In this document: positions 2,640 to 58,524 of the stretch, one piece after another | Layout: every line of letters begins with the position of its first letter | Numbering within the stretch: the stretch's first letter is position 1 | Origin: Phoronis australis | Taxonomy: Eukaryota > Animalia > Phoronida | Assembly: GCA_002633005.1 (NCBI GenBank) | Contig: NMRA01000611.1 | Coordinates: 184,248 to 248,247 of the forward strand | DNA: 64,000 bases | Direction: 5' to 3' | Made by a program: the position numbers and the translations under genes | Notes under the pieces: model-generated | Databases searched by the model: none | Told to the model about the DNA's origin: nothing | The model's input: the letters and a program-made list of their open reading frames with translations, nothing else

Positions 2640-3503
2640 CACGACTGAGGTTGACTTTCGGATGGGTCCAACTACTGTGTTGCCCCCTCGTGGCGATTTT
2701 GTTTTTTGCATCTGTGGCTGATACTCCTTTACCCTTTGAAGGAACTTTGTGAAATTTGAAAGATGTATTTATATGGAGCCATCAACAAACAGTATTGAGT
2801 GTCGAACTGATCCAGACACCATTGGGCCCCCTACTGGCAATTTTTTTTTCGTTTGCCCCTGTATCTTTGGATTTCAGTAATGTATTTTCTTGGAATTTGG
2901 AAAATAAGTTTCTATTAAAGAGACAACAACACCTTCCCATTTTCGGACAGATTAAATTTTGATTTTTCTACACCACCTGCATGTTTTTGACGTCTGCCTC
3001 TCTATCTGCCAAACCACTCAAAGAACAATTTAATTATGAAAATTGAAGGTTGACATGTGTTCCTCATGCGAAGACCCTGGCTGACGTTGATATCTGCATG
3101 TTTTTTTACTATTCTGGCACCCCTTAGGGGCAGTTTTGCTTTTTGAGTCTCCTTTAACCCATTGAAATATCTTGGTGAAATTTGGCAGATGTTCTTCTAT
3201 ATAGATGGCAACAGATGACAATGGGTTTCAGACCAATCGGACTATAGTTGTGACCCCTAGGTCAATTGTTTTTTACTTTAACTTTGCCTATATATCTTAT
3301 GAGTTCCGTGAATTACTTTCATGAAATTTGGTTTAAGTCAGTTGTGTTTTACAGAGACGATTCTACCTTCAATCAATTCACATGGATTTGACGCATTCTG
3401 TGCCATCTAATGGCTATCTTTATGATAATAAAACACCCATAGAAGCACACTGTTTGCACAGTGTTTAGTGGGCGCATTTCAACCCTCTGCGTTGCTCTTG
3501 TTT
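2640..3503 (-). repeat. Same HINE-like family, reverse orientation
   Basis: Ends GTTGCTCTTGTTT (reverse complement of the head) and carries reverse-complement core motifs. A further fragment lies at ~7925-8375. Confidence 0.55.
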
Positions 3504-27300: not shown

Positions 27301-30300
27301 AATTTTACGTGGCCAATGACAGCTTCTTACAAATTTAACATAAAAAATCCAGATATACAACAGGCTTTCCACTTTTAGAAGATATAAACTTTCACAAAGT
27401 TGAAATCCATATTTTTGTAAATACTTCGATAAAAACACAGACATATATATGCATGTGATGGGCGTATCACTCAATACAACTGTTCATGTCAGTTGTGACA
27501 ATGCTCCATAATGAAGTAGATGTATTGCAGCCTATAACAGACACCAACTACACGTGCTAGTGAAATCTATGAGCATTTCTAACTATATTATGCAATTGTT
27601 ATGAAACTTGTATTTCAAAGCAAATGTGTATCAATACAATTCTACACTGTACGCTTTCTTGTAGTTTCACGTACAGTTGTCCAATACAACTTGAGGTGTT
27701 TTGAGAGTGAGTGCTTCAACCACATGTCAACTATGTCATTTCTTACCGTTACATTCTACCTCTTCTTCACATGGTTCCGAGTGGTTGAGATAAAACGTCA
27801 CTGTCCGATTCCTCTTAGCTAGAATGTGTACGGTCTGGTTAAAGTTGTGTACGATCACATCACATGTTTCAATACATAACACCTGGGTGACGGTAAAGGT
27901 ACTTGATACTACATCATTGTTGTAGACATTCACAAGGACTGCTGTGGAGCTTTGAGATTCACGGTAGCTGGTAATGTCTAGTATCTGAGCCTTGGCCCTG
28001 TAAATACAAAGAAAGGCAAGGATCTCATATCAGACGTTAAAATTGCTGTGGAAAGTGTTCGTAATTCGGCAGTTAAGAGAAGATAAAAATGATGTGCACC
28101 CGGCAACGATAGAATTTCCAAGAATAAATATAAATAAGAAAAAGCGAATGTCAGATATCAACAGTTAACATGTACCCCAAGCCCATTGAATACCAATTTT
28201 TCATACTCGAAACTCGACCAATCTTTCACTCACAATTCGTGCGGGTTTGAAACGGAAATTTTGCAACAATGCAATGTACAGAATAAACAACCTTTTTAGC
28301 AACAGAATTACAGAAAGAAAAAGTGAATAAAACCTAAACATTGCATAATTTCAGCAGTAACAACACAACACTTACCTTGACTTGATGAACAGCATTTCAT
28401 CGATAGCAAACTCGATGGTGATTGTTATATTACAGTCTGAAGAGTACTCCACAGACAGTACTTTCTCACCATCAGGCAATGACATGACGTGATAGAATTC
28501 ATAGATGTGGTTGGACAGCCAGTACTTCCCATCCACCTCGGCAACCAAACTAAGTTTATCTTCCAACCACAAGTGGAATGGCTGATTCTTCAAGCAACTG
28601 AAGAGACAACGAGGGAATTTTAAGTTAAAAGGACAAATACGTCCTATTCAAAAAAATAAAGACCAGGTTTCTCAGCTGCATTGCAATATGTCTCAAATCT
28701 TTCCACTTAAGACTTAAAAAGATGTCAAAAAGGACATCAGTTGTGACAAGGTTGGATAATTGTTTCAAAACTGCGTGGGCTGCTTTGTATAAGAGATGAG
28801 CTCGCCATTCCTTGTCCCAGTAGACAAATTAATAGTTATCACAGCATCAGAGCTGGGTTCCAGCAACCCTGCTTGTATGCAAAAATTGTTGAATTTACCG
28901 TACTGATATATGTTCATTACATTTAAGAAAGGACACTACTCAAACTCCCAATACAATTTCATAGATCCTTCAAAGTGCAAGAATAGAATACAACACATTG
29001 ATTTCTCAAAATTTCTTCACTGAGGTTTTTTGTGAGTTGAACAACAACATAAAAGACAAAACAGAATTGTTCACAGATTCAGAAATTGAATTTCAGTTCA
29101 CTTATCATAATTGACAGATTAGGATTTCAAAGTGCACACTAACAACACCTCATGCATTATTATAAGTCGTGACCTGTCAATATCTTTGTTGCATCTGTCC
29201 TTTTGGTTCGTGAATGCCTTGAACGAGACTCCAACCTTGTTACATTCGTCACCAGAGTCAGTGAAAATGCGTTTGTTGACTAGCATCATGTCTGCCATCT
29301 CTTCCTAAAATCAACAATTGAAAGTAAACCTGTGTCAGGGGTCTTATATATGAACTAAGACTCGAGTCAGACTTAAAATTTAATCAGGCTGCACGAGTCA
29401 GGTAGGGTGTGCTTGTGCTATACTGAGTACATGAATTCCGTACGAAACTATTACACAATCAATCGGTAAGACTAAGTCTGAGAACATCAGGCAAAAGTGG
29501 AAACATAGCATATCACAGATTTTTTAGACATAGTTTGGGTGAAATGATGAACATCCACCTTGGTAGATTCACTTCAGAGCATGTGCCACTTTAAGGAAAA
29601 TGAAACCACCCACACACTCGGGCTATGATAGGCTATGTTCAAAAGTGTGAATTTTTACATTTCTCTGAACTACCAACATTGGGAAACAAAAGAATGTCAT
29701 AATCACATCAGCAGTTCTATCCATTTTGAGATTGAAGACTTGAAATAAGGGTACAGTCTTTTCACACGTTATATAAATTTATTCAGTTTTGTGCCCACCT
29801 ACTCATACACTATATAAATTTATTCAGTTTTCTGCCCACCTACGGCATTATGTATGGCCAGTGGAAATGACTAACTTTTGCACATGACTCTTAAGTCAGA
29901 GTTTTTGAGATTTTCACGATATATCATATACTTATCAAAAGACCCATCAAGTTGTTTCCACCAATGTATGAAAAACACATCATTGTTGTCAACGAATCAA
30001 CAAGAAAGGTCAACTTCACAACTGGAGGCGATAGTGAAGGGTAGTGGTTAGGGTCCATACAGGAAAGTTGGTGAGTGATTTTTTTCATGGACAATCTAGT
30101 CAAACACTCTACGTCTTGCAAACTGCAATATTTATCAGATCTATCCAGCATGCGAGAGCTGCCAGGAAAGAACACAACAATCACTTAGCATTGCAAGATA
30201 TTGTGGAAACTGAGCTTGTTATGTGCACCACCATTTTCATCATCGGGATACATAACGATCATTAAATTTTTATGTAAGAGCGATCCCACAGCCCATGCCA

Positions 30301-33300
30301 GGTTTGGACCAATGAAGTCAAAGCAACATCTACTGACACTAGTTTCATCTCATTTCTTCATCTGTTAGATTAGCTAACTTCCTAAAACAGCTTCGAGGTG
30401 ATGATGTAGTTACTACAACACCAGGTGTAGCAGACGGTCAAAGCAACAGAACATCCAGTGGAGTAACATACGGATACTCGACAATACAACAGGTTGGACT
30501 AAATGAAAGATCAGGGAAGTTAAAATGTACGTGAAGCTACTCCACATCGTCTTTCAGTCAGCCAGGCAAATAGTCGAATGACAATTGGCTACCACTCGTT
30601 GGGCAAAAAGTTAATAGATTAATCACTGGCCAGGTAGTGAGAGCACTGGACTGAAAACTGCAAGATCCTAGGTTCAAACCCTACCGTCTACCAGAAAAAA
30701 TATAATACGAGTTCCACATTGAGAGCCCCAGATACCCATGCTGTAACACCAGAATATGGCTGGAGCATGACCAAACGAAACTTTGTGTCGATGTAAATAA
30801 GCAAGAGATTGGTGTAAATGGACCTAGAGAGTTTAAACAAGGTGTCAGATTCTTGCATTTTATTGTTTCTGGCCTGTCATATTCTGCGCAATAGCACCTC
30901 CAATGAATAAAATCAATATGACCACCTGTTGTCAGAGCAGATGATGGTTGAGAAGGTAACAACAAAATGAAAACTGCCCTCATTCTGATTAGGATGTTGC
31001 TGAAATTTAAGACCTACCACCCGTGCTGTCATGATTTTTATTTACATTGCGTCTGACAAAGACCACAGTATTTGCACCAACATGTATTCAGAAAACAACT
31101 GCAAAACTTAAGTTCCAAATAATACAAATAGTAAGTAACTAATACAGTTGGTTACTTCATGTTAACTGGTCTAATTAAAGCTGGAAAATTAACAACTGAA
31201 AACAGTCTTTTTTTAATCGTAACTAATTGTTGTTTACAAAAATCACAATTTTGATTAGCCTTATTCTGTTTTCCCATCTACAAGAAAGAGGGCAACACAG
31301 TCATATCTGTAGGGCCTCAATGAAAATGGCCGATGCTTTTGTATGTCTTGCAAAAAACTCTGCCTGTGGATTGAAAATGAGTTTTAACAGTGAGGCCAGT
31401 TGAGCATTTTTGAGAGTTTAATCAAAATTTTACTGTACCACATAATCGGTTACTGAAAGAGTTCGGTGGGTATGCCCACAAACAGGGTTAGTGCTTACGT
31501 TCACAGCTTTAGGTCCTCGGTGTGTAGATGTCTAGGTAATCAATAAATTCAATTTGATAAATAGTCTTTGGCTCATTTGTATGATATTTCCCGTCAATGT
31601 TTGAATAATTCTATCGTCTTGTGAACTAGACTTTTAGGAATTTTCTTTCTGACCAGGACCCTATGAGAATAAACATATCATGCACAAAGTCACTTGTAAC
31701 ACTCAACTGAACCCGAAACATCCGTTAACATGTAAAAGATAATTTTCCAAACTAGCCATTCATAGTTTGCCTTTAACGTAAACCAACAGAAAATTCTCAA
31801 AGTATCTCCACCTGCTCCAGTTAGATATGAGCTTGAATAAATATATCAAGGCTATTTTATCAACAACTTTTGAGATTTACTTTGGTCAAAGGTAAATACT
31901 AGATCCCTTGATAAACATATAAAGTCTGAAGGAACTAACTTCAAATTTAAATATAAGAGGTGCATCTGCTGAAGAAAGATATAGGTCGATATAATCTCAG
32001 ATCACACACCAGCCTCCAATCAGACAACAGTTGACTGTCTTGTGTGGAACAGCACACCATTGTGAGTCAAGATGAAAGAAAAAGACACTGAAGTCAAAGA
32101 TGGCAGTCAAACACCAGTTGCAGTGATTCTATCACTAGTCTCACTGCTGTTTGCCTTGATCAGTTTTGGACTGGCTATCTATGTTGTCTTAGGTGTACAA
32201 CATCGGCAGGAAAGAACAACCACCACCAACCACAATGATGGCTTTCATGACTGGGCTAAAAAAACTGAACTGGCAGAGTTCAAAATAACCATATATACTG
32301 ACCTGGTGAACCTCAAACGAGAACACAACCGACTTAAGGCTCATGTTTTCCAGACCGAGATGAAAACCGAACGCCAGCTTAGATTCATGCGGACAATACT
32401 ATCCAGCAAATTTGGCCATGCGTATACCAAGATCGTTCCTCATGATATTGATTCTAAACTGGATGAAACAACACCAATTTCCAGACTAAAGCGGGCTGCA
32501 AATGACCCTACTACAGGAGAAGAGTTCAACTCACAGTGTATTCAAGGGCCGCCTGGAAGAGATGGCAGAGATGGACGTGACGGCCAACCAGGACCACCTG
32601 GTGCTAACGGTATAACTACAGATGACCTGCAGAAAGTACTGAGCACATTCCAGGAGTCCATACTGCAAGCACAAAAAACTAAGACCGAGATGAAGTATCA
32701 CAATGGAACTGAAGGTGGAGCTGTGTACATAAGGTGGGGACGAACATCATGTCCAACAATATCCAAACTGTTGTATGATGGGATTGCAGCAGGTTCGTAT
32801 TACACTCACACTGGAGGTGGAAGTGAGAAGCTTTGTCTCCCACATGATCCACAGTGGGGAAAATACCAAGATGGCTTCCAGAGTCATTCTTACATATACG
32901 GTGCTGAATATGAAATCAATGGTGCCAAAGTATTTTCGCGAAAAAATGCGAATGACGCAAGTTTGTACGAGCATGACGTCCCTTGTGCTGTATGCTACAC
33001 CCAATCGAGAGCCTCTCAACTCATGATTCCAGCCTGGAGAGACTGTCCTGCCACCTGGACCAAAGAGTACAGTGGATATTTGATGGCAGAGGGCTATAAA
33101 TATCAGCGGTCATCATTTGACTGTGTAGATGAAGCCCCAGAGGTGATCCCAGGAGGTGGTACCAACCAGGAAGGAGCACTATTCTATAATGTTGAGGCCA
33201 AATGTGGATCATTACCTTGTCCTAAGTATGTGGATGGACGGGAACTGACCTGTGTAGTGTGCACCAAATGACCAAGAGAACAATTATAACAAATGTGCCT

Positions 33301-36300
33301 TTACAATGGAAGAAAGTATCGCCAATAAACAAAGTTGATTATCTGCATGAAAGGCAATAGCCATGTACTCGCATGGAAAAATACTCAAGAAAGGATCGTA
33401 GATTATGAAATCAAAAATACCAGCAGAATATATGCCAAAAATACTTGATGAGTGTCGACATGATAATTCAGTTGCTTCTGTTACTGGGATGAAGATACCC
33501 TATTTCAAATTAATATTAAACAGTACTAGACAAAATTATCAACAGATGATCTATACAATCCTTTTGGTAGTAGAGACTAATATCACAGCATCAAAACAGG
33601 GTGACAGCAACTCCACTTGACTGTGCACAAGGTTTATTGAATAGCTGACAGTGATATCTGTTTATTACATCTGACGTTCGCTCAAACTATAAATCTGTTT
33701 ATTGCTCCTGTGAAGTGCCACAAAAGAGTAGAATACACTGAATTCCCAAATTTCTTCCGAGGCTTTTTGTGTGTTGGACAAAAAAATAAAAACCGAAAAT
33801 TAAAATTCTATGGACCTCACAGATTCAGGAATTCAATTTCAGTATATTTATCATAATCAAATGGTTACAAGTTTAAGATGTATACTAAAACACACTAATG
33901 CATTGATCATAATTTATGATCTATCTTTGTTACAACTTGGTTTGTGAATGTCTTGAATGAGACTCCAACCCTGTTGCATTCATCACCAGAGTCAGAGAAA
34001 ATGTGTTGGTTGACTAGCATCATGTCTGCCATCTCCTCTTATAATCAACAATCAAGGACAGACATGTGTCAAAGCTGAAAAAGAATGAGAGGCCGAGTCA
34101 ATTTTGGAGAATTATAATTCTCCAAAATCCACTCAGGCTCTAGATAAGGGGGATAATGACTGAGAACATGTAATAATCTATTTATACCACATACTGAACG
34201 AGAAACATTGCAATGTATCGATCTACCTTTCTCAGCTCGCCTCAGCTTTATAACTACTTTCTATGTCAGAGGCCCGGGGTCGGAGGTCATGACCTTTTAA
34301 GAAAAGCCAAGCTATTTTTGTCAAAACCAATTGAAAATTTAAACAAAATAGAAATAAAGTGAATCTATAAAGGTTTAGCAACTACTATAGCTTACTACAC
34401 ATTTTATCACGCTAAGCTTCGACCGGGAAACTACCGTCTGCTAAAGTAGGTTACCACTGGTAACTGAGTATAATTCTCAAGTCAAAGGATCCTGACGACA
34501 CGATACCCGCATTCAAATTGGAGATCGGTGATTTACAAATGAGAGAACATGAGAGAAAAAGTTCAATGAATTAAAATATCGTTTTTATGGAAATTATGTG
34601 TCATAATTTTACATAGCGTATAAATGTTGGTACAGTGCCCTTTGTTGAACATGCGATTGTTTTGCATGCTCATTTAAGTATTCTAGTTTCACGTTCGATG
34701 ACGTCAGCCGCTGAGTGGTGCAGTGGTTAAGTTGACGACTGAAACTCTTGCGGCCCGGGTTTGAAATTGGCCTCGATTTCCCGCCAAAATGTTATCTCAC
34801 AAGTGAGATAACTAAATGGGTTATTACACAGTAATGAGTTGTATTGGCCATTCGAGGCTAATATTGTGGTATAACATTCCTTAGAAAATACGTTAATGGA
34901 TTACTGTTAATCAGAGCGCTAGACTGAAAATTGCAAGATCCCAAGGTTCAAACCTTCGCCATCTAATAAGAAAAAATATAATTGAAATGCCACCACGAGG
35001 AAAGAGATATCCGTGATCTAGCACTTGAGGATGGCTTAGGTGATGGACCCAAACAGCATGCCAATGTAAATAAGATTGGTGTGAATAGATCTAAGGAATT
35101 TAGCCATGTTAGATTGTTATATTTTGTTACTTGTGACCTGTCATATTCTACCCACAAGCTCCTCTAATCAATAAAATTACAATATTATCAACTGTTATCA
35201 GATCAGATGATGACTGAGCAGGTAACATCAAAATGAAAACTGACGTCATTCTGATATTGCTGAAATTTAAGACCAGTCATCCCTGTTGTCATTTTTGATT
35301 TAAAATAATTATTGCATCTGGCATAGACCACAGTATATGCCTCAACATGTCCCCATACAACTGCAAAGTTTCTTAAATACAAATACAAATAGTAGGTAAC
35401 TTATACCCCATAATTTTAAACTACGTATTCTTGATGCAATTCCAAAGTTAGACCAAAAAAGATAAATAGGACTGACCACTGAAGAATGCCATCTGGAATA
35501 TCCCACGATAAACGTGAGAGAGGATAGCCAATATGTGGGAGGGTATCAGTTAATAAATTCTCAGGTCATGTTTCAACCTTCACTCAACACAACAAAACGT
35601 ATCCTGGAGATTCAACATGAAAGAATCCGACAATGACGTCAGACGTGCAAGACATTACACAGCACCAGTAGTGGTTATTTTGGTTCTGGTTTTGCTGTTG
35701 GCCTTGGTCAGTTTTGGACTGGCCATCTATGTTCTCTTTGAGGTACAACACCTCAAGGATAGAACAGCCACCAAGGATGATGGTTTCCAGGACAGGCTCA
35801 ACGTTGATAAACTGGACGAAAGTCAAACAACTCTGTACAATGAACTGGTGAAATTGAAACAAGAAAACAAGCACCTTAAAGCACGTCTTTCTGATAGTGA
35901 GAGAAAAATGGAGCGTCAGCTCAAAGTCATGCGTGCAACAATATTTAGTCAATATGAACATGCACAAACCAAAAACACTCTTCAAAAAACAGGATTTGAA
36001 GTTAATGAAACTACATTAATTTCTCGAGGAAGGCGTACTGCAGTCAACTTCCCCACAGCTGGAGAAGTGACCAAGTTTCAGTGTCTACAAGGCAGAGATG
36101 GCAGAGATGGGCGTGATGGCCAACCAGGACCACCTGGTGCTAATGGTATTAGTGCAGATGACTTGCAGAAAGTACTGAGCACCTTTAAGGATTCCATGCT
36201 GCAAGCACAGAAGGCTAAGACTGATGTGAAGTACTACAATGGGACTGAAGGTGGAGCTGTGTACATAAGGTGGGGACGGACATCATGTCCAGCAACATCC

Positions 36301-39300
36301 AAACTGTTGTATGATGGGATTGCAGCAGGTTCATATTACACTCACACTGGAGGTGGAAGTGAGAAGCTTTGTCTCCCACATGATCCACAGTGGGGAAAAT
36401 ACCAAGATGGCTTCCAGAGTAATTCTTTCATATACGGTGCTGAATATGAAATCAATGGTGCCAAAGTATTTTCGCAAAAAAATGCAAATGACGCAAGTCT
36501 GCATGAGCATGACGTTCCGTGTGCTGTATGCTACACCCCTTCAAGAGCCTCTCAACTCATGATTCCAGCCTGGAGAGACTGTCCTGCCACCTGGACCAAA
36601 GAGTACAGTGGATACCTAATGGCAGAGCATTATCTTCATCAGCGGTCATCATTCAACTGTATAGATGTAGCCCCAGAGGTGATCCCAGGAGGCAGCCCTG
36701 ACCAGGAAGGAGCACTGTTCTACCACGTTGAGGCCAAATGTGGACCCTTACCTTGTCCCAACTATATGGATGGACGAGAGCTGACCTGTGTAGTGTGCAC
36801 CAAATAACCAAGAAACAATAAAAACTGTGTAGTGTGTAGTGTGCACCAAATAACCAAGAAACAATAACAATGGTACCATGTCTTCCCAAAAGTTGAACAC
36901 AGACATTGAGCTGCCTTGAGAATAAAACAACGCATAGCCATTAAACAAAGTTGATGATCTAATCTGTGTATGTTATGACTACTACTGTACGAGTATGATA
37001 AGCAGAAAATTATAAGTTGTTACTGAACTTACTTGAGATGAAAGGGCAACGTGAGTGATTTTCTACAGATTTGTCTTAGACATTTTTTCATACGATCAGT
37101 AAATATGTTTACACATGGATGCACCATGGAATCTCCCGTATCCCCTATGTAGTCAACTGGTACATGGAGGAATTTGAAGAGGGTACTCACCCCTTATGCT
37201 GGAGTGAAACCATGAGTTTGGTTCAGATATGTTGATGACACTTTTGTGATTATTAAACAGTCTGAAAAGCTAAACATTTAAACAATGTAGACAGACATAT
37301 TAAATTCAATGAGGAGGAGGGTAGAAACACACAGACCACTATTTACAGTTTGGCTCTCATCATGGATTGGGCACAAACTTGGTGTTATTCGTACCTTATA
37401 TCACAGACAATGACAGGACATTAGAGAAACACAGGATTCCTTACTCTCTGGAGAGGTGTGTATACCCACGTTGAGTCTTTACCTGTAGAACACCCAGATT
37501 GGAAATTAACAACAATGACGCTCCTCAAACAGATCAACTATTGACGGGGATATCTATTCCTTAATATGTAGAAAGACTTTCTGAACAATTACCATCTGTG
37601 TTCAGGACATTTGATATCACCACTTTGAGACAAAAAGTCATGTTACCTAAGGACAAACAACCTAGTAAGCAAAAGATATCTAACGTGGCCTATTTGGAAT
37701 ACAGTGTGGAGAGTGTCCTGAAACTTATGTAGGTGAAACTAAGCATTCCTTGAAAGCACGGTTGTCCAAAAATGGCCGGCCTAACTTGTGACACTTATGA
37801 CTCTACTGTATTTACCTACTGTCAGGGATCTGGTCACAGCTTTGACCATGATAATGTACTAATTCTTAAGAAGGAGAAAAACTTGTTTGAATGAGGAGTC
37901 AAGGAGTGTATTATGAAAGAATTGAAAATCCATTTCTGAACCAACAAGGAGGATAGAGATTCAACCTATCCCAAACCTAGGACAGGATTCTGACTAAAAA
38001 AATTTCATGCCAATTTTCTCAACTCCGACTGAATCTACCACAGCTAGCAGAGGCTTGAAAAAGCCAGCACATGGTGGCGAAATGTTGCTTTCCCATTCAT
38101 CTCGAGTAAGTTCAGTAACGACTCATAATTTTCTGCATACAAGTTGATGTTCTGCTTGAAATGTACTAGGCATGTTCTTACAATGACAAACAAGAGCAAC
38201 TCGGAGCGTTGAAACGCACCCACAAATGCATCGCTAACGGTATGCTTTCACGGGTTGTTTATTTGTGTCATAAAAATGGCCACCAGAAGGCGCAAAAATG
38301 TACAATCCATCCAAAAATGGGAACATGTCAGCTTCTTTAATAGAAAGCTACTCACCAAATTTCATAGAAATCTGTCCCGGAACTTCATGGAAACAAAGGA
38401 AAACAGAATGAAATGAAATTGCCACTAAGGGGCACAGTGTTTATTGGATCTGTCTGAAAGTCGTCATTGTCTAATGTTAGCTTCATATAAATACAGTGTA
38501 ATTAAATTTAAATGAAGATCCAGCAGTGGGTTTAGGAGATACAGCTATGGGCGCAAAACAAAACATAACTACCATTGGAGACGCCACAGTAGTCAAAGTC
38601 GTCATCGTCAATTCTCCTCTTCACACAGAGAACATAAATGCGAATTTTCATAACCATCCTTAGAATGATTTGGTTGATAGAGGGGTGGACGCCAAAAAAA
38701 CAGACTCGAAAACAGCAAAAATGGCCACAAGTTGGCGCAAAATACCTTGATTCCATCCAAAAATGGGATCTCACCAACAGATCCCTGAATTCAAAATTTT
38801 ATGAAAATCCATTGAGGACTCTTGAAGATACAGAGGTAAACGTAAAATCTAAAATTGCTACCAGGGGGCACACAAGTAGTCAGACCCGTCCGAAAGTCGT
38901 AGTTGTTCTTTGTCAACATCATATTAATGCACTTGCTTAATTTAGTAAAGATCCTGCAAACAGTTTAAGAGATACAGCGATGGGCGCAAAAAACGAAACT
39001 GCCACTAGGAGGCGTCACAGTAGCCGAAGTCATCGAAAAATCATCGTCAGCTGCCCACTTCATCGTAAAAACATACATGCCAATTTTCACAATTATCGTG
39101 AAAGTGATTTGGTTGATAGAGGGGTGGACGCAAAAAAAGATACTCGAAAATGGTAACAAGAGCAACGCAGAGCATTGAAATGCGCTCACAATTGCACCGT
39201 ATACGGTATCCTTCTAGGGTTGTTTATTGGTACCATAAAGTGGCCAGTAGAGGGCATATATGAAGTATTTTGTACTTTGCAAAATGGAAAGGCATGGTCA

Positions 39301-42300
39301 TCGTCTCCTCAACAGGCTAGGGGCAAAATGTGAGTGATCTTCATAATACAAGCACATCCTATACATCAGTTGCTTAAAGCACCACAGAAACATAGAATTA
39401 AAAACAAATTTACCAACACACGAGATTAGCACAGCATTAGAATGCCAGATACAAATTTCTACTTGGAACTTTTCCTTCATAGTCACGAAGTAACACAAAG
39501 TATACACCTGAAGACCTATGAAAATACAGAGGTCAATGTAAAATACTTATTAAATTGCCACTAGAGGTATACCGGTAGTCAGAATCATCCTAAAGTCGTC
39601 ATCGTCCGTTGTCAACATCACATAAATACACTTGCTCAATTTAGTAAAGATCCTCAGAACGGTTTGGGAGATACAGCCATGGGCGCAAAAAAAAACTGCC
39701 ACTAGGAGGCACCTCAGTAATCAAAGTCATGGGAAATTCAGCGTCAACTGTCCTCTTCATAGTAAAAACATACATGCCAATTTTCACAATCATACTTAGA
39801 GCGATTTGGCTGATAGAGGGGTGGACGCCAAAAAAACAGACTCAAAAACAGTAAAAATAGCCACTGGGTGTTGCAAACTAGGTCGAATCCATCCGAAAAT
39901 GGGAGAATAGCATCATCTCACTAATAGGTGCCTACATACCAAATTTCATGAAAATCCGTTCAGGACTTTTGAAGATACAAAGGTAAGCGTAAAAAACTAA
40001 AATTGCCACTAGGGGGCACACCGGTAGTCGGATCCGTCCGAAAGTTCGCACATGCCGTCCCATTCATAAATGGAACATATGTGCAAATTGAAATTTCATG
40101 AACGTATGTCAAAGGGTTTTGGAGATAGAGCAGCGGACGCCGGACGCCGCCCGGACAGACGGACGGAGATGACGGCATAATGCGTCCACATATAAATATT
40201 TGGACACATAAAAATGGCCATTAGGTGGTGCAAACTACGTTGAATCCATCTGAAAACGGAAAGATAGTGTCACCACACTAACAGAAGCCTGCATGCCACA
40301 TTTTTTGAAAATACGTTGAGGACCTTTGAAGATACTGTGGTTAATGTAAAAAAATAAAATTGCCACCACGGGACACAACAGTAGTCAAATTCGTCCGAAA
40401 GTTGTCGTCGTCCTTTGTCAACATCATACAAGAACAACGCAAAGCGTTGAAATGCACCCACGAATGCACTGCAAACGGTGTGCTTCTAGGGTGTTTATTT
40501 GTATCATAAAAATGGCCACTAGATAGTGCCAACTATTTCGAATCCATCAAAAAACTGGAAAATGTCACCGTTTTTTAACAGAAAGCTATTTACCACATTT
40601 CATGAAAATTTGTCAAGAAACTTTAGCAAAACAGAAAAAATGAAATTGCCACTAGGAGACAAAGGTTCATCGAATCCGTCTGAAAGTTGTCTTCTGTTGT
40701 CAATGTCATATAAATACACTTGCTAAAATAAATAAAATTAACATTCTGCAGAGGGCTTAGGAGATACAGCTAAGGGTTGCAAAAAAAAACTGCCACTAGG
40801 AGGCGCCACAGTAATTGAAGCTGGAAAATCATCGTCAACCGTCCTCTTCACACTAATAATATATAAGCCAATTTTCAGAGTCATCCTAAGAGTGGTTTGG
40901 TTGACAGAGGGCGGACGGCAAAAACAGACAATAAGAAAACAGAAAAAATGGCCACTAGATAGCGCAAAATATGTCAAATCCATCTGAAAACTGGCAAATG
41001 TCAGCGTTTCTCTAAAAGAAAACTATTTAAAACATTTCATGAAATTTTGTCAAGGAACTTCAGAGAAACAGAGGAAAACAGAAAAACTTATATTGATACT
41101 AGAGGGCAGCCTTAGTCGGACCCGTCAGAAAGTCATCGTCTTCTGTTGTTAACTTTATATAAACACATTTGCTACATTTAATAAAGATCCTATAGAGCGT
41201 CTAGAAGATACAGCCATGGGCGCAACAAAACTGCCACTAGGAAGCGTCAAAGTAGTCGAAGTCATTGGAAAATCATCGTCAACTGTCCTCTTCATAATAA
41301 GAACATACATGCCAATTTTCACATTCATCCTTAAGAGTGGTTCGGTTGATGGAGGGACGCATACCAAAGAAAACAGACTCGAAAACAGTAAAAATGGCCA
41401 CTAGGTGGCGCAAAATACCTCGAATCCATCCGAAAACATGAGGATAGCGTCACCTTATAAATAGATACCTATGTGCCAAATTTCATAGATATGCATCAAG
41501 GACCTTTGAAGATACAAACTTACTAGGTAAACGTAAAAAAATAAAAATGCCACTAGGGGGCACACCTGTAGTCCGATGTATCCGAAAGTCGTCGTCCTTC
41601 ATTGTCAACTTCATATTAGCACATTTGCACATTTGCTACATTTCATAAAGATCCTGTAGAGCGTTTTGAAGATATAGCCATGGGCGCAAAAACAAACAAA
41701 ACTGCCACTACGAGGTGCCACAGTAGTCGAAGTGGTCGGAAAATCATCGTCAACCGTCCTCTTTATAGTAAGAACTCATATGCCAATTTTCGCAATCATC
41801 CTTAGAGTGGTTTGATTGACAGAGGGCCGGACGCCAAACAACGGACTCAAAAATAGTAAAAATGATCACTAGATGGTGCAAAATGCCTCAAATCTGTCCG
41901 AAAGTAGGAGGATAGCATCAACTCATTAATAGATGCCTATGTGCCAAATTTCATGAAAATTGGTTGAAGACCTTTGAAGATACAGAGGCAAACGTGAAAA
42001 ACTAAAATTGCAACTAGTGGGCACAGCGGTATTTGGGTCGATCCAAAACTCGTCGCCCTCTGTCGTCAACCCCATAGAAACACACCTGCCAAATTTCAAT
42101 AAGATCCTGAAAGGGGTTTAGGAGATACAGCTGCGGACGCCGTACGCCCAGAGATGATCGCAATATGCATAAATACGTGGGCACATAATAAAATTGCACT
42201 TGCTAAATGTAGTAAAGATCCAACAGACGGTTTAGGAGATACAGCCACCAGCGCAAAAAAAACAAAGCTGCAACTAGAAGGCGCCACAGTCGTCGAAATC

Positions 42301-45300
42301 GTCGGAAAATCATCGTCAGCTGTCTTATTTATAGTAAGAACATGCCAATTTCCACAATCATCCTTAGAGTGGTTTGGTTGATAGAGGGGTGGACTGATAG
42401 ACTGTGAAATGTAACAATTTTGTAACAACTGTTACATTTTACATCATTGTTACATTTTAGGTTGCTAAGCCTCTCCTGAAATGTAACAAATAGTTACATT
42501 TTACATAGTTGTCATGCCAGAAATGTACCATTGTTACATTTTCCAAAACCCACATCATATTGCAAAGAAAATGACCAAAATCAAGAACCTGACACGGCGG
42601 GGGTATACTGGAGTATTTTTAGATGAGGAGTGGCGCCCGGAAAATTTGAATACCTACCCGTTTAAGAGAGTGGGCTTGAACTAAAAAGTGACCCATTTAG
42701 AGACTAATTTATGTAAAAATTCACATTTTCCCACAGAAATTCAGAAAGCCACCTTTTAGATATAGTTTTGTCGGAAATGGCACCATTTTGGAGAGTATTT
42801 TTTTCTGTGAAAAAAACACCCTGTTGGGCTGCACTTTTCATATACATCTTCTATAGGAATGAGTCGGGCTGACATGACATGAATTTGGCTACTTATTATG
42901 ATTTTTATTAGTATTACATTACTATCACTGTTACTGCTACTACTGCTTTTACTACTATCACTAGCATTACTCTTTGTCGCTTCATTTTCGTTATTATTAT
43001 TATTAATATTTTTAAATTTATTGATTGAGGACACAATACGTGTTTAACAAAGTCCTGATACATTATGGTCCTCAAAGATCTTAAAATCATTTCATTTATG
43101 GTTCAATGTTGTCATCGGGCTTTCCATAGAGGACGGCGAGTGCTGTTCGAAAAGGATTTTAAAGGGGCTCCTATGTTCAGCTTTAACTATATTGCGAGGA
43201 ACGTCTTGACAGCTGTAGATGCAGAGTAGGCTTATTGTTTGGAAACAGGAAGGCTGAGATTTAAAATCTTGTTTAGACATGCACCAACTTCAAAATTGAT
43301 TATTTCTGACCTATCACAAGCACTGTATTATTTGTAAATATAACTAAATTAATCTGAACTGAATTCAGACCGCAATATTGTCTCTGACTTGTTGAAAACA
43401 TTCCTTGTCAAAGAACTGGGATTCGTTCCATGGTGATATGGAAGTTCAAAAATTGTGTTAAGTTGAACTCTGGAGGCACACATTTTTCGGCAATTCTAAC
43501 GACTAGTCGGCTGCGGTCACCGGGTCATTAGAATAGCTGGTAATGGACATACAAAACACGCAACGATTTTACGTGGAATGGGCCCCAATATTCTTAGAAA
43601 AGTGCTGCGAGTTAACAGAATGATTACAGCTAGGTTTCATTGAGAATGGATTGCATAGAACAACAACCGCCAACGGCAAAGTCAGCAATGTTTAATATGA
43701 ACATTAAATGCAATGCAGCAAAAAGATTAATATGCCAAATTCCCTTATGTACGAGCTGCAACACAAAAAGTGGCACCTCATGAGACACATGCCTTCACGT
43801 CCAGTCAGCTTCTTTGGACTATAAGTGTACCTTTAAATTATAGTCCTTTCAGAGTGCAAAATATTTTCCCCAGCTAGGCATCCCACTTTTATGTATACAC
43901 GTCACGGTTTCATCTGTTGTTACCACCGCTATTTCAAGCAGGTTAGACATCATAGAAACTTTCTTTCGGCGTTCAAGCTGTATTACACACGTTACTATGC
44001 CATCATTTTTTACACTATTGGCTCGCTGTGCTCAAAGGTGGCGTTTTGCTGTTGCTTTGGCAAAGCCTGTCTACCTGCCGGCAAATAAAAACGTGCTTTT
44101 ATTTCCTTCCATCACAATGTTTAAGAAATTGCCATTCCTAACTAAGGTGGTAGACAGAGCCCATGGGCATCAGCAACTTTGGTTTTGCTCTTTTTGTGTG
44201 GAGCAGGGCAATTAGGGCATTAGCGATGACTCCAAGGCAATAAAACAATGGCCAAAATAAACTAAAACTGGTTTTTTTCTATGAAATTGGCTTCCGAAAT
44301 TGAATTCTCCATGAAAAAATTGTTGTTGTCCTTCGTTTCCGAAGAAACACAATAAATTTTAGCCAAATACAATGTCATTATTGTTCATACCAAGGGAAGC
44401 GTGTTTACTATAATGTGGGATACACAGTTGCTCTATGAGCGCCAACAAAAGATTGCAAGAAAGCTTTAACGATAAAAAACTTGTTACCTGATCCTGTAAA
44501 ACTCCTTTCGCGTGGAGTTGAAACTGAACGCTGAGCATTTTTGACTACACTATAAAACTATTCACGTTAAAAAAACATGGAAAGTGCATAGGGACACATC
44601 TATCAAGTCGACCTGGCACATTTCATTCAAACTATCCGAGAAAGAAGGCATTAAGTGTGTCAACGGTTTTCCTCGGTGTGACAAATACAATGCAAACTCA
44701 GGAAATATGATGTGGCTTTCCTCTTTCTGGCATGTAACAATTACATAAATAATAATGTAACAACTTGTTACATTTCAGGAGAGGCCTAGCAACCTAAAAT
44801 GTAACAACTGTTACATTTTACGAAATTGTTACATTTTATCAGTGGACGCCTAAAAACAGACTAAAACTTACAGTAAAAATGGCCACTAGGTTGCGCAAAT
44901 TACGTTGAATCTATCCGAAAACGGGAGGATAGCGTCGTCTCACTAATAGATGCCAACATGCCAAATTTTATGAAAATACACTGAAGACCTTTGAAGATAT
45001 AGGTAACCGTAAAAAACTAATTAAAATTGCCACCAGGCGGCACACCAGTAGTCGGATCTGTCTGAAAGTTCGCTCATGCCATCCCATCCATGAACTGAAC
45101 ACATGCAAAACTTCATGAACATAATCAAACGGTTTTTGAGTTAGACTAGCGGACGCCACACGGATGAACGCTGGACGAACGCCGCACAGAGATGACGGCA
45201 TAATGCGTCCACCTATAAATATGTGGGTGCATAATAATTGAGTAATAAAGGAAATATAAATCATTAAATCAAAAATGCCAACAGCATATGGGAAGATGAA

Positions 45301-48300
45301 TACTTGATCAGAGTTGACGTGATAATCCAATTGCTTCCATCACTGGGATTGAATCATTTCGATATACACAAAAACAACATTTCCAAGTTAGTATAAAACA
45401 GTACTTGAAACGAAATTAATAATAGATGAACCATCCATTCCTTTTGGCAGTAGAGACGAATTAATCACAGCACCAGAACAGGGTGGCAGCAACTTCGCTT
45501 GTGCACAAAGTTTATTGAATACGTGGCAATGATGTTTGTTTATTATAGCTGACATTCGCCTAAACTCTAGATCTGTTTGTTGAGCCTTTGAAGTGCAACA
45601 ATAGAGTAGAATACATTGAATTCCCAAATTTCTTCTGAGGCTTTGTGTGTTGGACAAAAACAATTAAAGCAAAAATTAAAAAGCAAAAATTACAATTTTA
45701 TGGACCTCTCACATTCAGGAATTCAATTTCAGTAGATTTATTGTAATCGAATGGTTACAATTTTGCGATGGAGACTAAAAATTAAATGCATTATCATAAT
45801 TTATGACCTATCAATGTCTTTGTTACATCTTGGTTTGTAAAAGCCTTGAACAAGACTCCAACATTGTTGCAATGATGCCCAGAGTCAGTGAAAATGAGTT
45901 TGTTGACTAGCATCGTGTCTGCTATCTCCTCTTACAATCAACAATCCAGGATAAACATTGGTCAAAGGTCATACATATGTACTCAGATTCAAGTCAGACT
46001 TAAAATTTGTAAGTTTACTCAAAGCGTAGCAAGCACTTGATCAATATTGAAGTCAAATTACGAGGTTCAAAAAATAGGCCCACTAAGGTGTAATGTGGTG
46101 TTATACTGAGTCCGCGCAAGATACACGCCAGTAACACAGGTTGAACTAAAACAAAAAGTTCAAGGAAGCTATATACATGATGCTACACAACAATGTCTTC
46201 ATTCAGCCTAGTAAGTAGCCAAACGACACTTGGATAACATTCCTTAGGAAATAAGTTAACGGGTTACTAGTAATCAGACCGCTAGACTGAAAATTACAAG
46301 ATCCCAAGGTTCAAACCTTGCCATCTAACAGGAAAAATAAAATCCAAGTGCCACCATGAGGGTAGGATATACCAGTGATGTAACACCTGAAGATGGCTGA
46401 AGTGATCGACCCAAACAATGTGCCGAATGTAATTAAGCTTGAGCTTGGGGTAAATACATGCAGGGAATTTAGCCATGATGTTAGATTGTTGTATTTTGTT
46501 ACTTGTGACCTGTCATATTCTACCCACAAGCTCATTTAATTAATAAAATCACAATGTTATCAACTGATATCAGATCAGATGATGACTGAGCAGGAAACAT
46601 CAAAATGAGAACTGACGTCATTCCGATATCGCTGAAATTTAAGACCAGTCTTCCCTGTTGTCATTTTTGATTTAAAATTGCATCTGGCAAAGACCACAGC
46701 ATTTGCCCCAACATGTCCCCATACAACTGCAAAGTTTCTTAAATACAAATACAAATAGTAGGTAACTTATACCGTATAATTTTAAACAACGTATTCTTGG
46801 AGCAATTCCAAAATTAGACCAAAAAAGATAAATAGGACTGACCACTGAAGAATGTCATCTGGAGTATCCCACAATAAACGCAGCACGAGAGAGGACAGCT
46901 GATATGTGGGAGGGTATCAGTTAATAAATTCTCAGGTCATGTTTCAACCTTCACTTAACACAAAACGTATCCTGGAGATTCAACATGAAAGAATCAGACA
47001 CAGAAGTCAGACGTGCAAGACATTACACAGCACCAGTAGTGGTCATTTTGGTTCTGATTTTGCTGTTGGCCTTGGTCAGTTTTGGATTGGCCATCTATGT
47101 TCTCTTTGAGGTACAACACCTGAAGGACAAAGCAGCCACAAAGAATGATGGTTTTCAGGACCGGCTCAAAGTTAATGTACTGGACGATGGTCAAACCACT
47201 GTGTACAATGAACTGGTGAAACTGAAACAAGAAAACAACCACCTTAAAGTACGTCTTTCTCAGAGCGAGAGAAAAATGGAGCGTCAGCTTAAAATCATGC
47301 GTGCAACCATATTAAGTCAATATGAACAAGCAGAAACCATGAACACTCTTCAAAAAACCGAGTTTGAAGTGAACAAAACCATGTCAATTTCTCGAGGAAA
47401 GCGTACAGTCCACAACCCCACAGCAGAAGTGACCAAGTTTCAGTGTCTACAAGGAAGAGATGGCAGAGATGGGCGTGATGGCCAACCAGGACCCCCCGGT
47501 GCCAATGGCATTAGTGCAGATGACTTGCAGAGAGTACTGAGCACATTCCAGGAGTCCATGCTGCAAGCACAAAAGACTAAGACGGAGGTGAAGTATCACA
47601 ATGGGACTGAAGGTGGAGCTGTGTACATAAGGTGGGGACGAACATCATGTCCAACAATGTCCAAACTGTTGTATGATGGGATTGCAGCAGGTTCATATTA
47701 TGCTCACACTGGAGGTGGAAGTGAGAAGCTTTGTCTCCCACATGATCCACAGTGGGGAAAATACCAAGATGGCTTCCAGAGTAATTCATACATATACGGT
47801 GCTGAATATCAAATCAATGGTGCCAAAGTATTTTCGCGAAAAAATGCGAATGACGCAAGTTTGTATGAGCATGATGTTCCCTGTGCTGTATGCTACACCC
47901 CATCGAGAGCCTCTCAACTCATGATTCCAGCCCGGAGAGAATGTCCTGCCACCTGGACCAAAGAGTACAGTGGATACCTAATGGCAGAGCAATACAGTCA
48001 TCACCGGTCCTCATTCGACTGTGTTGATGAAGCCCCAGAGGTGATCCCAGGAGGTGGTACCAACCAGAATGGAGCACTATTCTATAATGTTGAAGCCACA
48101 TGTGGATCATTGCCTTGTCCTAACTATGTGGATGGACGGGAACTGACCTGTGTTGTGTGCACCAAATGACCAAGAAAACAATAACAAAAATGTGTTTTCT
48201 AGATGTCAAACATTGAACACAAGGAACGTAATGTGCCATCATTAAATCAAGTAATAAGCATATTCAAATGATTAATAAAATATTCACAAAATTGTAAAAT

Positions 48301-51300
48301 CAAAAATACCAGCAGAATATGGGAAGACAGTGCTAGATCAGTGTTGATATGATAATTCAGTTACATCAATCTCTTCCTTGGATTGGCGCATAAAAACACA
48401 CACACAATTAAATATTTCATGTTTTACTTAGTACATAAACAACAAATTATTACCACGCAGAACTACAGAGGAAATTCTGAAAATATAAGCTATGTAATGT
48501 CGCATTGCTAATATTAATAAAACTGCTTTGGTGTGGCTTACCTCTTCATCTGTCAGTGCAGAGTCAAAGTTTGGTAGGAGAAGTCTACTGTCTTCATAAT
48601 CAAACAGCTCCTTAGGGGTGCAATGTGACGTTTGATAGTCGGCAAAAAACTAAAGTAAAGAGAATCAGACTGACGACACTGTATTTGATAATAAAAACAC
48701 AGTTTAAGATTACTGTCAACATTTTGTCGTCATCCTTGAAAATAATAATCCCTTATTCGCTGCCCAAAAATTAGCAGAAAAGTATTTTCACACACAACGA
48801 CTTATCCCAGGAAGGAACAAGTTGATATCAACTTTTTAATTTGGTATAACAATTATTCTAATCAAGTCAGTCTTTTTGGCAAAAAGCATGTTCAACTGTC
48901 ATCAATTCAGCGCACTGAGTAGAATAGAATGCCTGAAGACTTTTTTACCTTGTTTGTGGCAAAACGCATTGCTTGCGTTCCGACAGTAATGCTTGTTTTT
49001 CCGAGCAAACTCCGCCAAAGTACATCACCGTTTTCCTGTTCATGTGCTTCATACAATGACACAGCCACCTGATTTTGTAGAGTTGGACGACCAATGGAGT
49101 ATGCAGCATACCTAACAGAGACACACATGGAGTGGAAGTGAACAAAGTTGGATGACCAATGGAATATGCAGCATACCTAACAGTGACACACATGGAGTGG
49201 AAGTGAACAAAGGGCCAGACAAACCTAGCATTTTCTGTCCTTCAGATACAGGAGGCAAGGCAATCATTGGCCTTCGACATGTATTCAAATTACAATCTCC
49301 CCGTGTTCCTAGACGAATTTCAATGCTAGTTACTGTTCCTAAATCACCGCTTAACAACAAGTAATACATGTATCCTTCCCAAACATACATAATGCACATG
49401 GAAATTGACATGATACGACAACAACAAACTGGCATAGAAATACATCTTTGAAGATTCTTTCTAAAGCACCAACAATGCTCAACTCACAAATGTTTCACAC
49501 AAAAATGCAACTGTTTGAAGACTTGATCTGTTGAATGACAGTTGCCATATGGTGAAATTCTGCAAACACCACCCCCTCCAAAAATGTGAATTTTTAAACG
49601 CAAGAAATTGTTTAACACTGTCCTCAATTCAGATTTCTGATGATCGGGCCCACTCAAACAAAAACTATATCTAACACATTTTGTTCAAATGAGTCCTACT
49701 GCGACTACAATTGCACCACATGTGTTTGAACATGCACGGTTGCAAAGATTGCAAAGCCATTAATGGTTGAAGTAATCGCAGATCATCTACAACTTGCAAG
49801 AAATAGTAGAGAAAATATTAATTGCAGTGTCTGCTGAGCAAACTTAGGAAAATGCTGACTAACAGGACAGACGATAAATCCATAATGTACCAGAACATCT
49901 CGAGCACAGCACTCATCTTTAACTAGTATTATGACATTGAATTTAAAATTTGATTATCTTAATCCGTGACAAAGTTTGTGTCCGTGGAGTTTGGTAGATT
50001 AGCCATCAAGATCAAAATAAACACACACCAGAGTGAATCAAATCTCAGGCAATGAGCACTTGAATACAGTGATTTGTTAAGTGGTCCTGCGTCACCGCCG
50101 TTGGGACAAATCACCGACCGTCCTCTTTGCAGACCAGATGCATTGCGACAGGGACAGCAGAAACCCTACAAAAGACGAGACAGATATCAGGTACTCAATA
50201 TCAGTCAACTGAAGCAGATGTATTGTGCTTACACAAAAACTGTTTATCACGCACTATTTCATACAATTTAAATTTTTTTTAATTGCATGCAGTCTGATAC
50301 ACGTTGTACCAGACCTGCGCACGCAGCGCATGTGGGCCCATTTTTATGCTTAAAACCGAGCTGAGAAGCTTGAAACCTGACTCAAGGGTTTAGCAGTGTG
50401 ACCCAGTGGGACTTGAACCCACGATCTTGAGTCTGAGTAAAGAAAGTAGGCTCCTCTCACACTAGGCCACACTGCCTCCTCTCATACAATTATAAATTGT
50501 TATGACCTTCTAACTATAATTGTTAACGGTATTATTTCACTATAATATGTTGTATTTGTGCGTAATTTTGGAAACAGATGTTTGTGTAGGCACATTCTAT
50601 GAAACTGATCTAAACCATGCCTTGTATATAGCAACTCGCCAGTCTTTCAGTTGCTTAATCAGAACACCATTAAACACTGACAGTACATTAACTAGTGTGT
50701 GATGATTACTAGTGGTTGAACTCTGATGTTTTGTATAGGATTATAACAGCATGAGCAATCTTCTAAAGGATTCTCCTGTAGCGTAAGATGAGTGGTGAAA
50801 TTTTGGTTACTTGTTGTTCTAACCTATAACCAGTTTGGCATTATTTCAATTCCTGCAGGAGAGCAAAACAAACACTTAATATGGCAATCAAAAGAGCATG
50901 AAACTCATTGATGGACCAAGTGACACAACTGGTGATATACACAATCATACTTCCTATGTCAATAACTAAGACTATAATATTACTAACAGACCAATAGGTG
51001 ATGCTAGTGAATTGATATTGAAAATCATGAATCCCCAATGAATTTTTTTGTTTCCAAGAAAATGACTACAAAGTTGTGATGCGCAGTGTTGTAAAGAAGC
51101 TTTTGCAAGGTGTTGGCAACACAGTTAACATGTCAAAACAAGAAAAGACTCGGGCATTTACTATCCATAAAAGTTAACCATCACCAACTATGAAAGTGAG
51201 GGAAAATTCTTGTATTTAGTGCATCTGTGTAAGTCTTGCAATATACTGTGCCCATTAGATTTCACGCTAAGTGGGTGGACAATAAACTGAATGCAAAGAA

Positions 51301-57774: not shown

Positions 57775-58524
57775 ATATTGTCAAGGTTTCAAAAATCTCC
57801 TTAGCTGTGAATTTCTTCATTCTCTGCCCTACAGTTCATGATACTGTATGTGTAATATAATATTTGTACTGGTGTGTCTATCTTAGAATATTACTATATT
57901 TTGTATCAGAAGAAAGTATGGATGTTTACCTCTTCAGCCCGTGTACAAATTTGCCATTTACCCAGCTATGAACTATACATTCAGTGTTGTATCCGACTTC
58001 CGAGCCATTTCAGTTTGCGATCAATTCTCTGGCAATTCACCAAAGTTGGAAGAACTTTGAAGATATGCAGCACACATCACAAATTTTTGTCTGACCGGTC
58101 GGTTAGGAGTCGACAACCAGCCGTCGACCGGTCAGCAAATTAGCCGACCGGCCGACTAATTTTCAGCTGACCAGCTGGCCGCAGTGCCGACTCATAAGGC
58201 AGATAAACTGTGAAGAATAAGAAATAATTAATTTTTCATCAAAGCAGAAATTTTATGCGGGAATTTGGTAATGACATTCACTATTTTGTTTAATTGGGCT
58301 ACTTTAAGTACAGGTTTCATAAAAAATATCCACTTTTCTTGTACTGGCACACTAATACGTATTCAGTACACAGGTGGCAATCTCTGGTGTATTTCCTATT
58401 GATTTATATTTCAGGATCAAGGAAGTGGTGTGTTGCCGTTACACCCACTTTTGAGCCCCTTAAAAAGGTGTTCTCAAGAAGAAGTTCATCCTAGATGTGA
58501 TTGCTTATAGCTATCCACACCAAA

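Follow-up and report, generated by a model that had tools for sequence, protein, structure and literature searches.

The window analysed here is a stretch of 64,000 nucleotides (nt) of the phoronid Phoronis australis (assembly GCA_002633005.1, contig NMRA01000611.1, positions 184,248 to 248,247 of the forward strand), with a G+C content of 38%, and all positions given below refer to it. Its minus strand carries the gene HAP2/GCS1, whose signature exon is present in three copies, each of them in a repeat unit with a nested gene of opposite orientation. The intact copy (E0) matches the Pfam family PF10699 (HAP2-GCS1) with 45.5 bits against a cut-off of 27.4, and five more exons match in profile order, one of them also above the cut-off, giving matches for six of the seven exons mapped. 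The frame runs through these seven exons from 51634 to 27747, with AG/GT at all exon ends and 383 open codons. Moreover, E0 matched chains of solved HAP2 structures, three out of six at E<0.001. Four exons were mapped upstream of E0, and one further, possible first exon is a weak candidate (E 0.35), with no exon detected in between. When 18 candidate segments, of which 17 came from a list of 148, were scanned against Pfam, the first and last exons could not be mapped. Splice joints were seen in RNA reads at 50029/49111 (5+3 reads) and 48949/48649 (4+4 reads), and a total of three HAP2 junctions were backed by RNA, the expression of the gene being low in the runs examined.

The three units were found by self-BLAST to lie in tandem within HAP2, between the exons at 48542-48649 and 28376-28597, and this three-unit structure is real. 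Each unit (0, 1 and 2) consists of a copy of the signature exon, a shared flank and an antisense gene of the short-chain collagen kind with a single coding exon. On the plus strand, the order is E0, X0, G1, Y1, E1, X1, G2, an insert of repeats of 8.4 kilobases (kb), Y2, E2, X2, G3 and Y3 (Table 1). It should be noted that X1 and X2 denote flanks here but are also the labels of two DNA runs, called 'DNA run' below, and that X5, X6 and X7 are RNA runs. The X flanks matched each other at 30473-31148, 34871-35406 and 46120-46775 (72% identity for unit 0 vs the others), and positions 34871-36830 matched 46234-48195 with 88.7% identity. Furthermore, 33399-34074 matched 45257-45967 (77.5%), 33402-33473 matched 48291-48362 (80.6%), and the exon regions matched as 28789-29381 with 45419-46008 and 28837-29318 with 33581-34052, all these repeat matches having E-values of 1e-11 or far smaller. 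The repeats were thus recovered at the positions named by an earlier note on this DNA, which had been made from the sequence alone and had proposed a dot-plot. The units span from about 28720-28790 to about 48375-48460, which is nearly all of both introns flanking the signature exon, the right edge being weak.

Table 1. Features of the HAP2 locus in window coordinates, sorted by position.
Feature	Position	Strand	Evidence
Predicted HAP2 exon, second after the signature exon	27747..27997	-	AG/GT, in frame; no Pfam match alone
HAP2 predicted 'exon 8', after the signature exon	28376..28597	-	PF10699 290-364, E 2e-7; AG/GT, in frame
Left breakpoint zone, intron after E0	28720..28790		Homology to unit 1/unit 2 junctions begins at 28788/28721; 0/200 shuffles as high
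E0, functional signature exon, 131 nt, phase 0 to 2	29174..29304	-	Pfam E 5e-12; RNA tails match 30/30
Flank X0, upstream of nested gene G1	30473..31148		Self-BLAST, flank alignment
G1, short-chain-collagen-like, 399 aa, one coding exon	32072..33271	+	Open reading frame; G1-like reads in X5/X6, ~6% divergent
Y1 and junction J1 (G1 3' flank joined to copied intron)	33399..33540		Self-BLAST; DNA contig
E1, dead exon copy	33921..34038	-	AG->AA, 7-bp deletion, donor GT->AT with 6-bp deletion
Flank X1, upstream of nested gene G2	34871..35406		Self-BLAST, flank alignment
G2, nested gene, 396 aa	35617..36807	+	Low plus-strand depth; G2-specific read tails in X5/X6
High-copy repeat insert separating G2 from unit 2, ~0.45-kb units	36830..45240		Self-BLAST, depth
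Y2 and junction J2	45257..45420		Self-BLAST, flank alignment
E2, dead exon copy	45808..45931	-	AG->AA, 7-bp deletion, donor GT kept
Flank X2, upstream of nested gene G3	46120..46775		Self-BLAST; zero RNA depth in runs X5/X6
G3, nested gene, 394 aa	46985..48169	+	Plus-strand reads in X5/X6 with G3 letters at diagnostic sites
Y3 (G3 3' untranslated region) and right breakpoint zone	48289..48460		Self-BLAST, RNA; homology past 48374 weak
HAP2 'exon 6', before the signature exon	48542..48649	-	Junction reads at both ends
HAP2 'exon 5'	48949..49111	-	Junction reads 4+4, 5+3; Pfam weak
HAP2 'exon 4'	50029..50165	-	Pfam E 8e-6; junction reads
HAP2 'exon 3' (predicted)	51497..51634	-	Pfam E 0.018; in frame

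All three exon copies match the HAP2-GCS1 profile from position 252 (E 5e-12, 1e-6 and 2e-4 for E0, E1 and E2, respectively). In the alignments, E0 is intact, with a TTTAG acceptor, its 131 nt and a GT donor, and E1 and E2 have in common the change of the acceptor AG to AA, a change of GAA to GAG and a deletion of 7 bp after AACCA (encoding NQ). This agrees with the earlier note, according to which only E0 keeps its acceptor and frame and the other copies share the acceptor change and a deletion after NQ. That note had missed that E1 has also lost its donor, whereas E2 retains GT. A shifted acceptor (TAAG) is present in both dead copies and leads to a stop at codon 3 in E2, where it would give an exon of 123 nt, and at codon 6 in E1. 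Two more acceptors of E2 (GAG) lead to stops at codons 42-56, all three E2 acceptors tried giving a premature stop with or without E0. Moreover, the pyrimidine tract of E2 was the weakest of the 10 sites listed (0.59), and a lysine common to E0 and to all six aligned HAP2 homologues has been altered independently in E1 and E2. With a broken splice site or frame and neutral decay, both copies have the features of pseudo-exons, and mutually exclusive use today is not what was found, as the tested E2 splice forms all give a stop and E1 has no donor.

The RNA reads were in line with this, less than a fifth of each of the runs X5, X6 and X7 having been read. With all copies in the reference, the minus-strand depths by bin in X5, X6 and X7 were 0.6, 0.89 and 0.16 for E0, 0, 0.06 and 0.38 for E1, and 0, 0 and 0.04 for E2, the joints seen in this mapping being 15 of 1918. 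When E0 was absent from the reference, seven reads of X6 and one of X5 left the exon 6 donor and were placed on the first 52 bases of E2, in which E0 and E2 differ at four positions. For six of these eight reads, the loose tail was identical to E0 at 29222-29251 (mismatches: 0 to E0, 4 to E1 and 8 to E2). Exon 6 is therefore spliced to E0 across 19.2 kb in all six informative reads, the other two being uninformative, and the junction search proposed by the earlier note finds E1 and E2 skipped in these few reads. Inclusion of E1 or E2 was seen in none of the six informative exon 6 junction reads, with an upper 95% bound of 39%, and decay would hide poison forms. A joint '45930 to 48541', taken at first sight as inclusion of E2, was rejected as a mis-mapping, since E0 lay outside that reference and the tails match E0. 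Elsewhere in the host gene, a tandem duplication of 65 bp (49081-49212, 95% identical) copies the acceptor of 'exon 5' together with its first ~30 bases. Neither AG is damaged, but use of the upstream AG would change the frame, and the eight junction reads were all placed on the downstream AG.

The order of the duplications was given by the flanks. In 377 aligned columns of the intron flank, unit 0 was set apart in 84, and units 1 and 2 in 23 and 24, respectively; in 522 columns of flank X, the corresponding numbers were 99, 24 and 25. The Jukes-Cantor distances of the intron flank were 0.43 and 0.43 between unit 0 and the others, and 0.19 between units 1 and 2, and by these alignments units 1 and 2 are sisters. 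Under a clock, the stem between the two duplications amounts to 0.12 substitutions per site for the intron flank (bootstrap 0.084-0.163) and 0.093 for flank X (0.068-0.121). Because E1 and E2 share their lesions and their flanks are sisters, a single inactivation very probably preceded the second duplication, as the earlier note had proposed for the first duplicate exon.

The changes within the exon bear on when this inactivation took place. Over 118 exon columns, E1 and E2 share five differences from E0, all five synonymous and none nonsynonymous. On the other hand, the changes specific to E1 or E2 comprised 14 nonsynonymous and five synonymous ones, close to the neutral expectation of 17:5, and after the second duplication both copies appear to decay as neutrality predicts. 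The contrast between shared (5:0) and copy-specific (5:14) synonymous and nonsynonymous changes gave a Fisher P of 0.006. For an exon dead from birth, about 7-8.5 shared nonsynonymous changes would be expected, and the simulated probability of finding none was 0.0005-0.002 under the clock, rising to 0.01-0.02 for an exon dead during half of the stem, to 0.09-0.15 for the last quarter and to 0.74-0.90 for one selected throughout. Moreover, the low divergence stops at the exon edges (shared differences in 6 of 118 exon columns vs 5/20 and 4/20 in the adjoining flanks). Since no shared amino-acid change was found where about 7-8.5 were expected, inactivation probably came late rather than at the birth of the spare exon, and HAP2 is therefore likely to have carried two intact exons for a long time. 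On the strength of the clock, past amino-acid constraint on both copies is indicated, and the evidence leans, modestly, towards selection on the spare copy for most of the interval between the duplications.

The following history would account for these observations. The first duplication would have copied nearly all of both introns flanking the exon, leaving two intact exons in one gene. As the exon is 131 nt long and double inclusion shifts the frame (intact double inclusion is predicted to give a stop at codon 50, and skipping of E0 one at codon 14), only single-exon transcripts would have made protein, with both exon copies in use. Weak donors would have eased skipping; GTCACG (E0) and GTCATA each match the consensus at three of six positions. 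Selection would have gone on constraining the amino acids of the copy until roughly the final quarter of the time separating the two duplications; the upstream copy would then have lost its acceptor and seven bases, in either order, and an unequal crossover would later have duplicated the already dead exon, HAP2 today using the copy nearest the 3' end. It is quite conceivable, though we say so tentatively, that the spare exon served for a time as an alternative to E0 within one gene, in mutually exclusive fashion, and was later lost. More tentatively still, HAP2 may once have had two fusogen isoforms from exclusive copies of its most conserved exon, as a by-product of the duplication of a nested antisense gene. 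The exon would have been kept by selection for roughly as long a period as has passed since it died, and would then have been duplicated again, in an array whose copy number may still vary between haplotypes.

Several observations weigh against an alternative-exon stage. The length of the stem rests on the clock because a close animal HAP2 outgroup was not found: single-exon word-index searches gave none, and a HMMER search gave nine distant hits, eight of them HAP2. Relative to a fourth paralogue of the nested genes (G0), unique changes are 1.5-2 times more numerous in G1 than in G2 and G3 (P 0.0003-0.04; synonymous-only unique changes, 9-13 vs 5-9), in a comparison for which G0 may not be an outgroup, and if unit 0 were twice as fast, the probability for an exon dead at birth would be 0.06. 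At one codon site no two copies agree, and one shared nonsynonymous change might be masked there, the probability of at most one such change being 0.003-0.011 under the clock for an exon dead at birth. Furthermore, the RNA depth is thin, and in run X7 about 253 read bases of the HAP2 strand, which remain unplaced, fell in the E1 bin (33349-34015) vs 107 in the E0 bin. Finally, an RNA structure enforcing exclusivity was looked for by pairing and by local alignment, and none was supported. In intron-exon pairing, 2 of 16 pairs beat 20 shuffles, and a stretch near the left breakpoint (28730-28775) pairs in part with all three exons, most strongly with E2 (-36.7 kcal/mol), pairing as strong being found in 1/150 and 0/150 random stretches. 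In local alignment, however, 61 of 2000 shuffles reached the score of E0, and higher scores were obtained for at least 5 of 647 windows. The pairing, which several E2-specific changes strengthen, is therefore of doubtful significance and was not counted as support.

The asymmetry of G1 speaks for an exon killed at or near its birth, which was the reading of the earlier note and under which the lack of shared amino-acid changes would stem from chance and uneven rates; selection would also favour an early kill, as double inclusion gives a stop. The simulations above argue against this under the clock, less so under twofold asymmetry, and in the 81 columns of the Y flank unit 0 was not faster (9, 7 and 8 unique sites). 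Early inactivation is unlikely, if still the strongest competitor. The earlier note had further held that HAP2 splicing was preserved by killing the extra exons; the dead copies are indeed skipped in the reads seen, but the killing would come down to one inherited event, probably late.

It would also be possible, in principle, that the whole HAP2 gene was duplicated with both copies under selection, and that a deletion then joined the 5' half of the first gene with the 3' half of its duplicate, or the reverse, the spare exon dying at about that time. Such a history yields an identical layout and also the 5:0 pattern without needing exclusive splicing, and with these data an alternative-exon stage cannot be told from it. 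Nonetheless, it requires two large events and a working chimera, and no remnant of a second HAP2 was found within the window, which makes it rather unlikely.

Gene conversion between units offers another route to the same pattern. The C-terminal domains of the nested genes (32670-32970, 36200-36500 and 47570-47870) are 95-97% identical, in contrast to 61-77% for the 5' half of G1 vs the others, and the synonymous divergence (dS) between G1 and G2 or G3 was 0.10-0.13 in the C-terminal domain and 0.73-0.75 in the 5' half (P 2e-7 for the G1-G3 contrast). The nested genes thus appear to exchange this domain by gene conversion, a further point against our preferred history, as a copy dead or skipped early could likewise have been overwritten by E0 shortly before the second duplication. 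However, a conversion limited to the exon predicts about 1.3-2 shared synonymous changes where five were observed, and its joint-count likelihood at the second duplication was 8-40 times below that of selection. Moreover, the tract would have to end at both exon edges and the 7-bp deletion to follow it, and we consider this course of events distinctly unlikely.

The earlier note had also suggested poison-exon isoforms. The shifted TAAG acceptor exists and, by sequence, would permit them mainly for E2, yet no informative read shows them. That E2 is a regulated poison exon today, through this acceptor and its kept donor, would be compatible with the history preferred here, and RNA decay would conceal its product; it is nevertheless improbable, given the empty E2 bin in X5 and X6, the neutral decay of E2 and its weak pyrimidine tract.

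Regarding the assembly, there are no N bases in 28.6-48.7 kb, and the flanks differ by 17% between units 1 and 2 and by 33% between unit 0 and either, compared to ~3-6% between alleles in neighbouring HAP2 introns. Positions 33196-33615 are contained in a single DNA contig that shows no differences and has a depth of 49.7, the single-haplotype depth being ~21-26. With Y1 at two-haplotype depth and without differences, Y2, 22% away, is therefore not its allele. In addition, reads of G1-like, G2 and G3 type were all found within each of the RNA runs X5 and X6, which come from another study; DNA runs X1 and X2 may derive from the assembly's own sample and are not independent of it. The E2 region (45255-46413) showed single-haplotype depth in both DNA runs (22.6-23.3 in X1 and 2.9-5.8 in X2), which in DNA run X1 compares with 45-50 elsewhere, and a second allele was absent from the listing in both runs; this may reflect a difference in copy number (two vs three units) or dropped contigs. 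Despite this depth at E2, the divergence of the flanks, the Y1 contig and the read types speak against the units being uncollapsed haplotypes, the condition under which the earlier note would have withdrawn its reading, and such an artefact is highly improbable.

As for the nested genes, G1-G3 and G0 share a predicted N-terminal membrane anchor, an R-X-K/R-R site (a furin motif) and 7-8 Gly-X-Y triplets. All four have a C-terminal domain of 185 amino acids (aa) with 10 Cys and no HSQ, as judged by counts only. The top matches of the nested protein were described as 'short-chain collagen C4-like' from marine invertebrates, with at most 62% identity among those listed. Runs X5 and X6 contained G1-like and G3 reads on the plus strand, X7 almost none, and the G3 transcript extends from ~46930 to ~48470. 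Near the right breakpoint, the 3' untranslated region (UTR) of G3 (48169-48470) stops ~70 bases short of the HAP2 exon 6 donor, which lies on the opposite strand. That flank X might provide the nested genes with an exon of their 5' UTR was considered and rejected for G3, there being neither RNA depth nor a joint. Moreover, unmatched loose ends of RNA reads at 47711-48174 point to at least one more expressed paralogue sharing the C-terminal domain. G0 lies at 918-2105 on the minus strand, is 74-76% identical to the nested genes and has no X or Y flanks; its N-terminal part is nearer to G2 and G3 than that of G1 is.

Between 7 and 17% of metazoan genes contain tandemly duplicated exons, which as a rule are spliced in a mutually exclusive manner (PMC3342872). 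As in the genes described there, a coding exon with its flanks was copied within the gene, its length is not a multiple of three and both copies appear to have once been constrained. Unlike them, the HAP2 unit is several kb long and carries a whole antisense nested gene, and the spare exon is dead and has been copied again as a pseudo-exon, exclusive use today not being seen. In dmrt1 of Solea senegalensis, a young intragenic duplication with near-identical copies is reported to give many mRNA isoforms (PMC7605655), and there too exons and introns of a conserved reproductive gene were tandemly duplicated. The HAP2 copies, in contrast, are old, broken, skipped and tied to an array of nested genes, and the word 'nested' is absent from the paper on dmrt1. 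HAP2/GCS1 is a gamete fusogen (PMC6089408, PMC8777248 and PMC2766252) known from sponges, cnidarians and some bilaterians, with expression in the testes of Hydra (PMC2766252). The conserved ij loop lies within the PF10699 segment (PMC6089408), and E0 spans the conserved part matched in solved HAP2 structures. The nested genes resemble the spongin short-chain collagens (PMC5395295) in their short collagenous domain, NC1-like domain of 10 Cys and lack of HSQ, and go beyond that description in the predicted membrane anchor, the R-X-K/R-R site and the single coding exon. A literature search returned nothing on nested genes or exon duplication in HAP2, and no paper on the duplication of a nested gene capturing a host exon; subscription journals were thinly covered, which makes this weak evidence of novelty.

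The locus offers a datable case of a nested gene family expanding inside an essential fertility gene. Because the exon, once dead, was preserved in two copies by the second duplication, a single genome would suffice to read how a duplicate exon arose, was retained and died. If the alternative-exon stage is true, a frame-shifting exon duplicate several kb away could be tolerated and even selected, and alternative splicing would have affected the conserved core of HAP2. Furthermore, pseudo-exons of this kind match Pfam and draw mis-mapped junction reads, as seen here, and can mislead annotation.

The insert between G2 and unit 2 includes a transcribed high-copy repeat in units of ~0.45 kb (38187-42394 and 44842-45238), with related pieces at 2724-3503 and 7924-8375, and inverted arms of 120 bp at 42407-42523 and 44724-44836 may bound another element. 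Finally, a long single open reading frame at 58501-59634 on the plus strand, divergent from the 5' end of HAP2, encodes a transporter of the major facilitator superfamily (PF07690, E 5e-13).

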